Below are positions 849 to 4,468 of a stretch of DNA of 64,000 nt, one piece after another. The stretch's first letter is position 1, and each line of letters starts with the position of its first letter. Both the position numbers and the translations under genes were made by a program. Location: the NCBI GenBank assembly GCA_013362805.1, contig JABFVL010000004.1, forward strand, positions 74,034 to 138,033, read 5' to 3'. The DNA comes from Mycobacteriales bacterium. GTDB taxonomy: Bacteria; Actinomycetota; Actinomycetes; Mycobacteriales; QHCE01. The notes beneath the pieces are model-generated. The model saw only the letters and a program-made list of their open reading frames with translations, ran no database searches and was not told the origin of the DNA.

Positions 849-1172
849 TTAGTCCCAAACGCCGCTAAAACCTATGACAGTAATGAGGAATCCGGAGAGC
901 ACGACGACAACACCAATGATCATGCCGGTAATCGCCCAGCCTTCGCCATTGAGTCGGCCCATCGAACGCATTACCTTCCGCCGACCTTTTATCCCGAAAG
1001 CCACCGCGGTAACCCCACCGGCGAGCTGCAGTAGACCCGCGAGCAGAGGTATATAACACAGAAACAAAGTGGGCATGCAGAAAGACAAAATCCCTATCGC
1101 AGTCGCACCCATCGCATGTTGGTCGACCCTAGGCGGAGAAAAAGCATCGGCTGGATGTTGCTCACTTTCCAT
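849..1172 (-). CDS. Small membrane protein, DUF4190-like
   Basis: ORF 849-1298. The ATG at 1170-1172 (MESEQHP...) is preferred over the TTG at 1298. The C-terminal two thirds is hydrophobic helices (LLAGLLQLAGGVTAVAFGIKG, ITGMIIGVVVVLSGFLITVIG). It is divergent from the toxin operon and lower in GC than its neighbours. Confidence 0.5.
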   Translation of the reverse strand: MESEQHPADAFSPPRVDQHAMGATAIGILSFCMPTLFLCYIPLLAGLLQLAGGVTAVAFGIKGRRKVMRSMGRLNGEGWAITGMIIGVVVVLSGFLITVIGFSGVWD

Positions 1173-1327
1173 GAAATGCACCTCGCCTGTCACTGATAGC
1201 ACTTTGTGCGCTTCAATCCCATCTTTGCATCCGGCAGGGACATAAACACGGCCTGGGGAAAACTCAACGCTTCGCCCTCTTCGTTTCGCTAACGTCAAAA
1301 TTGCGACTATTGGAAGGCAAGGTGTGT

Positions 1328-1597
1328 ATGGACTTCAAAGGGGCAAACATTGGTGATTTGGAAGCCGCTGGCACGCACCTTGGGCAAGCCTCCGCCGACT
1401 GCTACACCATCGCGGAGGGCATCGCCGCCGCTTGCGCTGACGCGATGGCCGCTTGCGGAGATCCCGGCATCGATGGGGCTCTAGGCACATTTAGCGGCAC
1501 CGTGGCTCAAGTCATGAGCTTTTCCTCTGGCCAGCTGGATACTTTGCGCGAAATCACCGTGGTGCAGGCCCAACAAGTCGCCGCAGCGACGGAGTAA
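1328..1597 (+). CDS. Small (89 aa) Ala/Gly-rich helical protein, candidate WXG100-superfamily/EspC-like partner of the downstream toxin
   Basis: ATG at 1328 lies after a GGAAGG purine tract, inside track ORF 1301-1597. The TAA stop at 1595-1597 sits 2 nt before the GTG of the next gene, which suggests translational coupling. The size and helical, Ala-rich composition fit T7SS helper proteins. There is no canonical WXG motif. Confidence 0.45.
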   Translation: MDFKGANIGDLEAAGTHLGQASADCYTIAEGIAAACADAMAACGDPGIDGALGTFSGTVAQVMSFSSGQLDTLREITVVQAQQVAAATE

Positions 1598-1599
1598 TC

Positions 1600-2877
1600 G
1601 TGAGCAATTACGACTACTACTACGGCAGCGCGATACGAGATACGAACGCTTATAGCCGACCCGATGAATTTACCCGGATACCTGGCGACCCATCAGCGCT
1701 ACGGCGCGCCGCCACGGTGCTTAGCCAACTCGCTGATCGAATCATCACCACGAACGGCACCATTGACACTGGAATGCAAACCGCAGTTAGGGATTGGCAG
1801 AGCAATCGATCTCAAAAATTCGTGGAATCCGCTCTCACATTGACTACAGCCACGCCATCAGCCGAGATGCGACTGCGCGCAGGCGCGAAGGCCCTGAATG
1901 ACTATGCAAGCGCTCTCGAAGAAGCACAACGCATTCTGGCCCAGGAGACGATTCGATACGACCGTCTGGCAACGGAGCGGCGTAATGCCGCTGACTGTTA
2001 CGAGCAACCTCGCAGCTCAGTTACGAATCCTGGCGAAGGCGGCAGCTTCGACACTCGGATGAAACGAATTCAAGAAACCGTAGGAACGGTTCAAGGGGAC
2101 TTGAAAACCAAAGCCCAGCAACTCGCAATAGAGCTTTACGGACAGGCAGCGCAATGCATCGTTGTTGAGCAGATTCCTACACCCAAGCAATTACTTCAAT
2201 ATGTTAAGGATTTCGGAAGTGCTCTTGGAGAGCCAGACGAAGTTCTGCGTGACAAATGGAGCCACGCTAACGCCAGCGCAATAGTTGTTGATAAATACAG
2301 TGACATCAGATCGAACATTAGCGCACTCACCACATGGAAAAAATTGGGAGTTCAAGGGAAAACTGGATCGCACATTCTCAAGAATCTCAAAGTGGACCTG
2401 GATGCAATATTCTTTGACGCCACAAGAACTCGACTCGGGGCATACGAAGAGATCCAACGAAAACTGGAAGAAGAAGCACAAATTGTCAAGCAAACTACCG
2501 CAGAACAGGATGGAAAAAAGCTTCAAATTTTAATAAACGACTTCTCTGATAAACTCCCACGCAATATCCATTGGGCAACGACAAACTTGCCTGTTCCGAT
2601 AGTCGGTAGCTATTTCGACATCATTGACATTCTCGATCCGAATAAGCCGATTACCGCCAAGTTTGTCGCAGGGCTTTCCGTCGCAGGCTCTGCATGTGAG
2701 GTTCTAGCAGCTACCACCCTCGTCACTGGTTCCACCGCTGTTGTTTTAAGTACATTTGGGATTGGCGTCGGGATCGTGGTGCTCGGTTGGTATATCTACG
2801 AGAACCGGGACCCGATCAGACTCTATCTCGATTCCCTTTGGGAACCTGAGCAGTTTAGAGAGAAGTTCTTGCCATGA
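1600..2877 (+). CDS. Putative T7SS-type polymorphic toxin: N-terminal WXG100-like helical secretion domain, C-terminal two-helix membrane hairpin
   Basis: GTG start at 1600 preceded by GGAG. N-terminal motifs: IPGDPSALRRAATVLSQLADRI, DWQSNRSQKF and ALNDYASALEEAQ. The C-terminus has two small-residue-rich hydrophobic helices (FVAGLSVAGSACEVLAATTLV, AVVLSTFGIGVGIVVLGWYIY; about nt 2662-2800). I recognised no enzymatic motif. GC drops sharply inside the gene. Confidence 0.55.
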   Translation: MSNYDYYYGSAIRDTNAYSRPDEFTRIPGDPSALRRAATVLSQLADRIITTNGTIDTGMQTAVRDWQSNRSQKFVESALTLTTATPSAEMRLRAGAKALNDYASALEEAQRILAQETIRYDRLATERRNAADCYEQPRSSVTNPGEGGSFDTRMKRIQETVGTVQGDLKTKAQQLAIELYGQAAQCIVVEQIPTPKQLLQYVKDFGSALGEPDEVLRDKWSHANASAIVVDKYSDIRSNISALTTWKKLGVQGKTGSHILKNLKVDLDAIFFDATRTRLGAYEEIQRKLEEEAQIVKQTTAEQDGKKLQILINDFSDKLPRNIHWATTNLPVPIVGSYFDIIDILDPNKPITAKFVAGLSVAGSACEVLAATTLVTGSTAVVLSTFGIGVGIVVLGWYIYENRDPIRLYLDSLWEPEQFREKFLP

Positions 2878-2902
2878 CAGCTTTCGATTTGGGATTTTTT
2901 AT

Positions 2903-3673
2903 ATGACAGGTCAAACATACACATCTTTCCCGGATCGAGTTAGAAAGATCGCACCGGCACTAATTGATTCCGATCTTGATTGGGAGTGGAAAAATTTCGA
3001 GATAAGATATTCTAAAAGAGATGGTATTTCGCTTATACCTTTGGTGGGTATATTGATGATTCTTATCGGCATGATTCGCGATGGATCAGATAATGCCCTC
3101 ATCGGCTTTGGCATCTTTTTTATTTTTTTCTCAAAAACTACAAATAGACATGGAATTGCTAACGAAGGCGTTTTTGCTTGGAAACAAGCCTTCAGGTCAC
3201 AATTAAGCCACCCACAAGGCGGCTCCATCAAAATCCCCTTGTCTTCAATAGACCCAGGCTCGGTGAGAATTCACCTTCCTCGTTTCCGCTTCATGCGTAT
3301 TCAGTATGCGGAATCAGCGCGTGCGCCAGGAGCCCCGAAGTCTCTCCAGCTTCTCATTATGACTGTCTTCGCTCGCAAAGCTGTCAGTTTCACTGGGCTA
3401 TCGGAAGAACTGATAAAACCACTGTTCATCGACACGAGTGTCTTCCACGAGGTCGGCAAGAAATATGCGCACCTACCTCCAGAAAGCTTAAGAGTTCGGG
3501 ATTGCCCCGAGCTTCTCACTCGGTGGTATGTGCACACAAACGAACCCGAAAAGTTCGTCAAAGCCCTCGAAGAAGTGATGGTGCGTCAAGGAATTCGTGG
3601 CGCGCGGCGTATGAGCAGACAGGCAATAGCGAACCCGATCATTGGACCAGCTCCCATAAACCCCGGAGAGTAA
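2903..3673 (+). CDS. Membrane protein (2 TM plus cytoplasmic beta-rich, PH-like domain), candidate immunity protein
   Basis: ATG at 2903 lies in frame within track ORF 2756-3673. The upstream part of that ORF overlaps the toxin gene. TM helices: ISLIPLVGILMILIGMI and ALIGFGIFFIFFS. This is the most AT-rich stretch of the window. It sits directly downstream of the toxin, the classic immunity position. Confidence 0.45.
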   Translation: MTGQTYTSFPDRVRKIAPALIDSDLDWEWKNFEIRYSKRDGISLIPLVGILMILIGMIRDGSDNALIGFGIFFIFFSKTTNRHGIANEGVFAWKQAFRSQLSHPQGGSIKIPLSSIDPGSVRIHLPRFRFMRIQYAESARAPGAPKSLQLLIMTVFARKAVSFTGLSEELIKPLFIDTSVFHEVGKKYAHLPPESLRVRDCPELLTRWYVHTNEPEKFVKALEEVMVRQGIRGARRMSRQAIANPIIGPAPINPGE

Positions 3674-4468
3674 ATGCACGGCGAAAGTAACTCAGATCTA
3701 GCATTTCGCGCGGTGGCTGAACTTCGCAGCCAGGTCGAAAACGAGCCAATATCTATCATGGCTCTCAGTGATGAAGAGCTGGCAATCTTGGACGATGCTG
3801 AAGACATCGGCCGTGAAAAGCTGAGCGCTCCCTTGCCTTGGTATTTCGAGCACAATGAGTCGGATCGTCGTCTATTGCGTGACGCGGCACTTCGAAGTCT
3901 CACCGTGCGGGGCCTCGGGTTTGCACGAAATGAGCCCTCCAAGGGCGAGCTCAATCTGGATTTGGACCGCAACCTGCATGCGCTACTCACCATGCGACAA
4001 GCGATGTCCTCCATGACGATCGTGAACCGGGCGTCGGCGCGAGGGATGCGCTGTCGCGTGCTTTTTGGGCAAGCGCCAGATTTGGTCTTGGAAGAAGACG
4101 TTACTGAGCAGGGATTTCATAGCTTCACACTAGGTCGCTCGAAAAGCATTGCTCAACGGCTTGCTGAGTTTGTAGACCCGGAGCCGGCTGCGGACAAGTG
4201 GACGAACCCCACGCAGCAATGGAATTTACAAGAAAATCAGATCACCCCGGAAAACTTTGAGCCCGTTGAACGAGCACTCTTCGTCACAGCGATGCGGCGT
4301 GATGACCTGGTGGGTGGCCAAATATTGACTCGCAGGTGGGCGATCTACACCCTCGAAGATCAAGTGATTATGGGTAGCCCAACGAAAAAAGGGAACGAGG
4401 CCGTGCTGCACCTACGCAATGTCACATCCACTGAACTTCAACAGGAACTGACGGCAATAGTCACGTAA
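3674..4468 (+). CDS. EspG-family-like protein (T7SS substrate chaperone-like), 264 aa
   Basis: The ATG follows the previous TAA stop directly (TAAATG) and GGAGAG lies upstream. The N-terminal pattern LSDEELAILDDAEDIGREKLSAPLPWYF ... RRLLRDAALRSLTVRGL resembles the actinobacterial EspG pattern (helix, conserved L..PxP, ER....L..RGL). Its length is typical of EspG. Confidence 0.4.
   Translation: MHGESNSDLAFRAVAELRSQVENEPISIMALSDEELAILDDAEDIGREKLSAPLPWYFEHNESDRRLLRDAALRSLTVRGLGFARNEPSKGELNLDLDRNLHALLTMRQAMSSMTIVNRASARGMRCRVLFGQAPDLVLEEDVTEQGFHSFTLGRSKSIAQRLAEFVDPEPAADKWTNPTQQWNLQENQITPENFEPVERALFVTAMRRDDLVGGQILTRRWAIYTLEDQVIMGSPTKKGNEAVLHLRNVTSTELQQELTAIVT

Follow-up and report, generated by a model that had tools for sequence, protein, structure and literature searches.

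A conserved four-gene cassette between rpsL and rpoC of an actinobacterial genome: a candidate Esx-associated effector locus with a predicted membrane-acting payload

Why do four tightly packed genes stand between rpsL and rpoC in an actinobacterial genome, and what might their products do together? The question is raised by a 64-kb stretch of DNA (hereafter the window) from contig JABFVL010000004.1 of the metagenome-assembled genome (MAG) GCA_013362805.1, in which open reading frames (ORFs) were called and translated over the full length. The four genes lie on the plus strand and are named here g1 (1328..1597), for a small partner protein of 89 amino acids (aa); g2 (1600..2877), for an effector-like protein of 425 aa (NCBI NUS72000.1, 'hypothetical'); g3 (2903..3673), for a membrane protein of 256 aa; and g4 (3674..4468), for a soluble acidic protein of 264 aa. 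An earlier note on this DNA had listed these ORFs together with a divergent one on the minus strand, g0 (849-1298); on recount, its positions and the spacing of 2, 25 and 0 nt within the operon were exact, and an independent Logan assembly of this organism gave the same gene calls. The explanation that we favour, with about even confidence, is that g1-g4 form a horizontally acquired effector cassette of the Esx-associated (type VII) polymorphic-toxin kind.

To begin with conservation, g2 and g4 each retrieved only themselves when used as queries in word-index searches. An exhaustive HMMER search detected seven distant relatives of g2, and a profile search added five more. Homologues of all four genes were found together in several loci (L002-L016, L017 and L018/19), all of them metagenomic actinobacterial contigs, with flanking genes that differ among at least five other contexts. 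The layout of these relatives is a gene for 89-99 aa, a gene for ~423 aa, a gene for a soluble protein of 260-283 aa and a gene for a protein of 229-275 aa with two transmembrane helices. In the other cassettes the homologue of g4 comes third and that of g3 fourth; the soluble gene precedes the membrane gene in every other instance, and the order is swapped in the window alone. BLAST identities between the window and its counterparts are ~27% for g1, ~21-29% for g2, 25-32% for g3 and 23-33% for g4, with E-values down to 1e-38 for g4 and ~1e-10 for g3. In a further locus (L021), a g1-g2 fusion is followed by g4 and then by the contig end. Judged from these homologies, g1-g4 are one conserved, co-inherited unit, and because the flanking genes differ across contexts, the unit moves as a whole.

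This unit is rare. It was present in five loci among 241 million metagenome records, and a relative of it in one of 72,556 plasmid records (an Arthrobacter replicon, described below). A pattern-level scan of 185,579 GTDB species representatives revealed no g4 relatives, and the cassette had no match among viral contigs and phage records or in a PADLOC search. The cassette most closely related to that of the window (L017:720-14460, Logan SRR25547229 contig) lies directly 3' of a Tcp-like Gram-positive conjugation block and just upstream of infC-rpmI-rplT; its g2 is divided into parts of 292 and 116 aa. Encoded in the block are a TcpF-like ATPase of 1192 aa (NF052333, E 1e-19; Pfam AAA_10), a polytopic protein of 645 aa similar to a 'mobilome membrane protein', a protein of 182 aa and an M23 peptidase of 386 aa.

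The earlier note had proposed the logic of a small helical partner, a large protein with a helical N-terminal domain and a membrane protein. This arrangement holds beyond the window, since a g1-like gene (89-99 aa) was found upstream of every effector with this N-terminal domain, including the relatives P0007 and P0008, whose payloads differ from that of g2. In L021 the two genes are even joined: the 531-aa protein P0005 (L021:1712-3307) consists of g1 fused to the g2 N-terminus (hhalign probability 78%, E 1.8e-5). The fusion points to a physical interaction between g1 and g2. Relatives of g1 share a W/Y-G-G motif ([W/Y]-G-G-E-L), the aromatic residue of which is lost in the window g1. In Pfam, g1 matched DUF6317 at E = 0.1 only.

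The g2 protein has three parts: an N-terminal three-helix domain, a helical middle, and a C-terminal membrane hairpin of two helices rich in Gly, Ala and Ser. The N-terminal domain (aa 22-185; 1663..2154, +) was characterized with AlphaFold2 (AF2), Pfam, NCBIfam and Foldseek. In the family this region starts with P-P-G-D-P (the P-G-D-P of g2 is at 1681-1692, +), and a Trp in the turn between helix 1 and helix 2 is nearly invariant; in g2 this turn is W66-Q-S (1795-1803, +), located by sequence and AF2. The third position of the W-x-G/S turn is Gly in three relatives and Ser in most. Helix 2 contains a conserved Y-A-x-A-L-x-x-A-Q in the alignment (1903-1929, +). Sub-threshold matches of g2 were to T7SS_signal in Pfam (E = 1e-3, 19.5 bits vs a threshold of 27) and TIGR03930 in NCBIfam (E = 1.5e-3, 18.7 bits vs 44.85), and a Pfam match to PPE was seen at E = 0.13 only. 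Among the relatives, 6 of 13 members matched WXG100_2 at E < 0.1 (best 5.5e-5, 23.6 bits vs 27), the best match to WXG100 had an E-value of 8.5e-5 (23.2 bits vs 27.3), and the P0009 cluster is named 'YukE' by the Joint Genome Institute (JGI). A profile of the domain aligned with EsxA, ESAT-6-like and PPE41 chains of the PDB in register, at E-values of 0.06-0.4 that are not significant; PDB searches with the g2 sequence and with the profiles of g1, the N-terminal domain and g4 gave nothing significant.

Structure prediction gave a similar picture. Based on a 13-sequence alignment, AF2 modelled aa 20-185 of g2 at a predicted local distance difference test score (pLDDT) of 62-91 as three helices (31-66, 69-134 and 145-184), the first two of which flank the W66-Q-S turn. 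The best Foldseek superpositions were on PPE41, PPE4 and PPE15, with template modelling scores (TM-scores) of 0.50-0.68 and a root mean square deviation (rmsd) of 3.3-6 Å over ~160 residues, whereas BAR-type matches had an rmsd of >10 Å. The secretion-type helical domain that had been proposed for this part of g2 thus gained support from repeated sub-threshold WXG100-type matches, the three-helix model, the PPE superposition and the varied payloads attached to it. Considering that the matches are weak but name the same superfamily, that the model superposes on PPE proteins and that hhalign probabilities are low (see below), it is likely, but not proven, that the N-terminal domain of g2 is a WXG100/PPE-like targeting domain.

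The C-terminal module of g2 (aa 340-406; 2617..2817, +) was defined by alignment and composition. It contains a two-helix membrane hairpin rich in Gly, Ala, Ser and Thr (2656-2799, +), in which 48% of the residues are G/A/S/T and which has five [GAS]xxx[GAS] positions. The hairpin is preceded by D-x-x-D-x-x-D-P and followed by Y-E-N-R-D-x-I, a tail that reads (W/Y)-(D/E)-N-x-(D/E)-x-I in the family; by alignment, the module is common to the relatives and the Arthrobacter protein. Matches of the hairpin to holin-type families were weak (E = 0.032 in Pfam, E = 0.0039 in PHROG), and a match to Gly-zipper_Omp was seen in the relative P0007 only (E = 0.029). From these features the hairpin is predicted to be a membrane-acting payload. 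A prophage or holin origin of the cassette was also considered and was rejected, the weak holin matches being restricted to the hairpin and a phage context being absent; a defence-system reading was rejected for want of a PADLOC match.

The same N-terminal domain occurs with other payloads. In P0008 it is joined to Abhydrolase_8 (E 3e-24) and followed by a lipoprotein gene, and in P0007 it is joined to a glycine-zipper tail and followed by a gene for a small multi-transmembrane protein. The downstream genes vary with the payload: a lipoprotein with the hydrolase, a small transmembrane protein with the glycine zipper, and g4 plus g3 with the hairpin. The reverse combination was found in Arthrobacter sp. 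StoSoilB13, whose 1-Mb replicon (NZ_AP024649.1; L022:6718-9068, corresponding to ~108,400-110,700 of the record) carries an unannotated three-gene variant. Its first protein (326 aa) has a different, W-Q-G head (TIGR03930, 3e-4) and the same hairpin (44% identity); a g4 homologue (33%) follows, then an RDD-family membrane protein in place of g3, and g1 is absent. The PLSDB record of this replicon has one annotated feature for the whole 1 Mb. The shuffling of heads and payloads in P0007, P0008 and the Arthrobacter protein implies that g1 goes with the head, that the hairpin is transferable and that the downstream genes go with the payload. As far as can be read from gene content, the cassette follows polymorphic-toxin logic.

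Both downstream proteins of the window lack database relatives. g3 contains two transmembrane segments recognized in its sequence (3026-3076 and 3095-3133, +) and, after these, a P-L-x-x-I-D-P-x-S-V-R-x-H motif conserved in the alignment (3236-3274, +). Its C-terminal domain of ~175 aa is predicted to be cytoplasmic by the positive-inside rule. No match of g3 was found in Pfam, NCBIfam, PADLOC or PHROG. A bPH domain, which the earlier note had suggested looking for, was not detected in g3 or its relatives; DUF3093 matched weakly (E = 0.025) in one relative, and the bPH_6 protein of L017 is a separate gene upstream of the cassette. g4 has 41 Asp + Glu vs 29 Lys + Arg and no transmembrane segment. 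Neither g4 nor its family matched Pfam (6 + 4 members searched), NCBIfam or PDB sequences, and a profile of nine family members had no PDB match at E <= 10; a single-sequence AF2 model of g4 was unusable (mean pLDDT 31.5). By analogy with known toxin loci discussed below, g4 is predicted to be a soluble cytoplasmic neutralizer or chaperone of the payload, and g3 to provide immunity at the membrane.

One locus complicates the association between g4 and the hairpin. In L108 (3836-5884), a 303-aa protein with the N-terminal domain (also named 'YukE' by JGI) has no hairpin in any frame. The next gene is a clear g4 homologue, with 44% identity to that of L002 and 30% to the window g4, and no g3 comes after it. 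The idea that g4 strictly tracks the hairpin, which the Arthrobacter variant had favoured, was weakened by this locus. Our guess is that L108 represents a decayed cassette which kept an orphan protective gene.

Under the favoured explanation, g1 would pair with the three-helix, PPE/WXG100-like domain of g2 to form a helical bundle, and this bundle would be recognized by a type VII (ESX-4-like) machine encoded elsewhere in the genome. The hairpin of g2 would then insert into the cytoplasmic membrane of a target cell, which would be depolarized or permeabilized. Within the producer, g4 may hold the hydrophobic payload harmless in the cytoplasm before export, and the two-transmembrane protein g3 may shield the membrane from toxin arriving from outside; both roles are drawn by analogy with EsxX/ExiAB/ExiCD of Staphylococcus aureus. 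What comparative genomics shows is the conserved unit and the exchange of heads, payloads and downstream genes; the type VII route of g2, its toxicity and the protection by g3 and g4 are inferred.

Several observations weigh against this explanation. Every family-level sequence match lies below its curated threshold. With alignments of PPE and Esx proteins from annotated plasmids of mycobacteria, hhalign gave the N-terminal domain a probability of 9% vs PPE and 6% vs WXG100/Esx, though the W-x-G columns were aligned, and g1 reached <1% with WXG100 or PE profiles. All Foldseek E-values exceed 0.03, and BAR-type long-helix proteins score similarly. Inspection of the alignments revealed no canonical YxxxD/E export motif in g1 or g2. 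The hairpin and the whole C-terminal half of g2 were modelled with low confidence, pLDDT being <50 outside aa 20-185. All four genes diverge together, with no pattern of a conserved head and a hypervariable tail within the family, and the presence of g4 after a hairpin-less protein in L108 implies that g4 does not simply track the hairpin. Finally, no type VII secretion system (T7SS) core genes were found in the 64-kb window, nor in 291 kb of cassette-bearing loci searched by tblastn with plasmid-borne Ecc, MycP and Esx proteins.

Some of these points suit a different, non-toxic role, in which g2 is tail-anchored in the producing cell, with the hairpin as its anchor and the helical part cytoplasmic or surface-exposed, and g1-g4 form a stable, type VII-related envelope complex serving, for example, cell-cell contact, conjugal mating or envelope maintenance. 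We regard this as unlikely. The co-divergence of the four proteins as a unit across distant hosts would suit such a complex better than an arms-race toxin, the large domain of g3 is predicted to be cytoplasmic, and the L017 cassette directly follows a Tcp-like conjugation block. ESX systems are also reportedly linked to mating in mycobacteria. However, conjugation genes occur in one context only, and the same N-terminal domain and g1 carry enzymatic or toxin-type payloads with lipoprotein or transmembrane downstream genes. The hairpin has been shuffled onto another head in Arthrobacter, and a cassette that is rare, patchy and low in G+C within its host is ill-suited to a housekeeping complex.

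A link to type VII secretion might be lacking altogether, if the similarity of the N-terminal domain is a generic long-helix likeness and the cassette travels with mobile elements as an autonomous module acting on membranes, whether holin-like, remodelling membranes in the manner of PspA or BAR proteins, or serving exclusion or addiction. The sub-threshold level of all WXG100-type evidence, the BAR and eisosome proteins among the top Foldseek E-values, the weak holin matches, the conjugation block in L017 and the lack of T7SS genes near any instance are compatible with such a module. On the other hand, the weak matches from independent members and different tools consistently point to one superfamily, with the turn Trp in register, and TM-scores and rmsd are much better for PPE than for BAR proteins. 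The cassette has no PADLOC, phage or viral-contig match, and neither flanking repeats nor an integrase or tRNA at the window site, while the Abhydrolase_8 relative fits a payload class common among Esx-associated toxins. We therefore consider this module quite improbable. The earlier note had called the fourth gene EspG-like, and an EspG-type g4 would be a chaperone that binds the PPE-like N-terminal domain and escorts g2 to the secretion machine. This domain does superpose best on PPE proteins known from PE-PPE-EspG complexes, g4 is soluble and, at 264 aa, similar in size to EspG proteins, and the EspG families differ greatly among themselves, an EspG5 vs EspG1/3-type profile comparison reaching only 5e-5. 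Nevertheless, hhalign gave the g4 family a probability of 1.1% over 23 columns with an EspG profile, which had been validated by its recovery of EspG1/3/5 chains from the PDB at 1e-71 to 6e-5, and there is no Pfam or PDB sequence match. The occurrence of g4 does not follow the N-terminal domain either: g4 is absent from L106 and L107, where the same domain carries other payloads, and it stands after the Arthrobacter protein, whose head is short, WXG100-like and not the same. By any available test g4 is not EspG-like in sequence, the earlier label has to be given up, and we consider an escort role of this type very unlikely.

Returning to the effector-cassette explanation, the closest described systems are the Eat/Tap loci (EatA/TapA1/TapA2/EatI), in which the effector gene is preceded by one or two genes for small helical partners (Benedict et al., Nat Commun 2026, PMC13444075). 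Eat effectors have an elongated helical N-terminal domain and varied payloads, among which alpha/beta-hydrolases are common and 47% are of unknown function; their loci carry compartment-matched immunity genes, depend on ESX-4 and are found throughout Actinomycetota at sites outside the ESX locus (PMC13444075). The window cassette, together with P0007 and P0008, shows, when compared by locus features and descriptions, the same combination of a small upstream gene, a helical N-terminal domain, a varied payload and downstream genes that may be matched to the target compartment, and it too was found without ESX core genes nearby. As in Eat effectors, one elongated helical N-terminal domain is common to proteins with a transmembrane hairpin, a glycine zipper (P0007) or Abhydrolase_8 (P0008), and g1 would be Tap/Lap-like by position. 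The two differ in payload, a membrane hairpin here and a GH183 arabinanase in EatA, and in that the cassette has two downstream genes, for a soluble and a membrane protein, whereas Eat has one lipoprotein inhibitor.

For the payload itself, the nearest parallel is EsxX of S. aureus, a type VII substrate with a glycine-zipper C-terminus that is rich in small residues and depolarizes membranes (Alcock et al., Cell Rep 2025, PMC12744356). Soluble ExiAB, which co-occurs with the toxin, sequesters its tail in the cytoplasm, and the membrane proteins ExiCD protect from outside (PMC12744356). On this analogy, and no more than that, g4 would map on the ExiAB role and g3 on that of ExiCD. EsxX differs in being an LXG protein of the T7SSb of Bacillota, and no sequence similarity to it was detected, the LXG family not being among the Pfam matches; moreover, ExiAB is a heterodimer where g4 is a single protein, and ExiCD is polytopic where g3 has two transmembrane helices. 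The LXG toxins TspA/TsaI and TelE/TipE similarly combine a helical targeting domain and small helical partners with a C-terminal membrane-permeabilizing domain (PMC7456083; PMC10434224; bioRxiv 10.64898/2026.03.12.711312). Such effectors are co-expressed with several proteins that attach to their N-terminal, central and C-terminal regions and stabilize them before export; TelE travels in a multi-protein complex, and DUF4176 proteins act as chaperones (PMC12482557). The cassette resembles TspA and TelE in having a helical targeting domain, a small partner and a C-terminal membrane-acting domain, but these belong to another phylum and machinery (T7SSb), and no homology to the cassette was detected. 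DUF4176 proteins are much smaller than g4 (264 aa). A likeness to PE/PPE pairs is seen in the superposition of g2 residues ~20-185 on PPE41/PPE4/PPE15, in the equivalent W-x-G/S turn and in the position of g1 upstream, like PE; it is limited by the PPE match of g2 (E = 0.13, hhalign 9%), by g1 being without PE similarity, by the lack of YxxxD/E and by g4 not being EspG.

Is the cassette foreign to its host? Its composition had been described as such from G+C counts of five 60-nt lines (41, 26, 19, 38 and 38 of 60), all of which were exact. The lowest G+C content of any 1.5-kb segment in the whole 64 kb is 0.46, at 2059-3562, a trough that includes the C-terminal module of g2; the next-lowest elsewhere is 0.53, and the window mean is 0.584 (standard deviation 0.026). 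G+C at third codon positions (GC3) is 0.667 in g1, 0.505 in g2 (0.470 in its C-terminal half), 0.467 in g3 and 0.581 in g4, against a background of 0.655 ± 0.044 in 53 other ORFs of the window. g1 is thus host-like, g4 is intermediate and g3 has the lowest GC3 in the window, which places the trough over the C-terminal half of g2 plus g3 and not over the entire operon. This segment is the compositionally most foreign DNA of the window. A deviant, non-core cassette is therefore upheld, but the clear deviation is confined to these two parts, and g1 does not share it.

It had also been claimed that none of these genes belongs to the conserved rpoBC-rpsLG neighbourhood. In line with this, no homologue of g0-g4 or of the adjacent oxidoreductase was found downstream of rpoC in 80 other genomes. 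The site itself is variable: the rpoC-rpsL distance in Actinobacteria ranges from 0.2 kb to >10 kb, and among 67 usable loci the spacing is <0.9 kb in 25, 1.2-8.4 kb in 18 and >9 kb in 24. Extra genes at this position are hence not unusual in themselves. The best identity to the RpoC tail in the genome collection is 81% (Streptomyces), too distant for an empty-site comparison. The 100 C-terminal residues of RpoC (5714-6013) are 80-81% identical to Streptomyces vs 71-73% to Mycobacteriales, despite the NCBI label of the MAG. A pattern search did not find the MAG among GTDB species representatives, and it may be deep-branching or mislabelled.

The flanks of the cassette are as follows. On the left, rpsL (ribosomal protein S12; 81..455, -) has a GC3 of 0.82, host-like or higher, and its product is 65-93% identical to RpsL homologues in 43 other loci. 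g0 (849..1298, -), divergent to the operon, encodes a small protein with two transmembrane segments recognized from its sequence (~1029-1100 and ~867-938, -) and has a low GC3 (0.53). In the Logan assembly it is called as 849-1172 (107 aa), and ATG 1172 (107 aa) is likely its true start. It matched DUF4190 under the Pfam cut-off (E = 7e-5). No g0 homologue was seen adjoining any other cassette, and by this comparison g0 is outside the conserved cassette. The divergent intergenic region between g0 and g1 (1173..1327, no strand assigned; G+C ~0.49) is the presumed promoter region; a scan of it found no promoter, and promoter and terminator scans of the locus were uninformative. On the right, a GFO/IDH/MocA-type oxidoreductase gene (4461..5528, -), convergent with g4 and of host-like G+C, lies outside the cassette. 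The 3' ends of the two genes share 8 nt (4461-4468), which leaves no space for a terminator between them. Beyond it is rpoC (5711..9598, -), with an 18-nt inverted repeat (5659-5698, 89% complementary, 4-nt loop) just 3' of its stop codon that is probably the rpoC terminator. Two copies of a 23-nt direct repeat lie at 5574-5596 and 5673-5695. No direct repeats were found to flank the cassette site, the rpsL-rpoC interval has no integrase-sized ORF, the nearest tRNA is 14 kb off, and Rfam gave no match at E <= 0.1 in 1-6000.

Elsewhere in the window, a 607-aa ORF (39494-41317, +) with only a weak ADP_PFK_GK match and a GC3 of 0.548 stands just after tRNA-Tyr (39290-39372), and the second-lowest G+C of the window (0.53, near 39660) falls at this ORF; 39290-41317 may be a second island. 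A 447-aa ORF without a Pfam match (43233-44576, -) adjoins three Proton_antipo_M (Nuo/Mrp-type) genes (44798-49652). An 852-aa GAF-GGDEF-EAL protein of cyclic di-GMP turnover (23429-25987) adjoins tRNA-Met and tRNA-Thr (23123-23378).

In summary, the cassette is a rare new family of an already described kind of system. Compact and conserved, it combines a payload predicted to act on membranes with two companion families without database relatives. It was only in 2026 that mycobacteria were shown to release antibacterial toxins by type VII secretion, and roughly half of the payloads predicted for such toxins have no known function. We only tentatively entertain the stronger proposal that these are the first actinobacterial (T7SSa/ESX-type) membrane-hairpin effectors with two-tier protection, in which g3 and g4 would found new families convergent with ExiCD and ExiAB of the EsxX system. 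If it is true, a g4 gene beside a decayed effector, as in L108, would be an orphan protective gene. For annotation, the fourth gene should not be named EspG, and the rpoC-rpsL gap is to be regarded as a common site of lineage-specific genes in Actinobacteria. If the predicted roles hold, the g3 and g4 families would be markers for effector mining in actinobacterial genomes, and the combination of soluble and membrane protection would not be peculiar to staphylococci but would have a counterpart in a type VII lineage unrelated to theirs.

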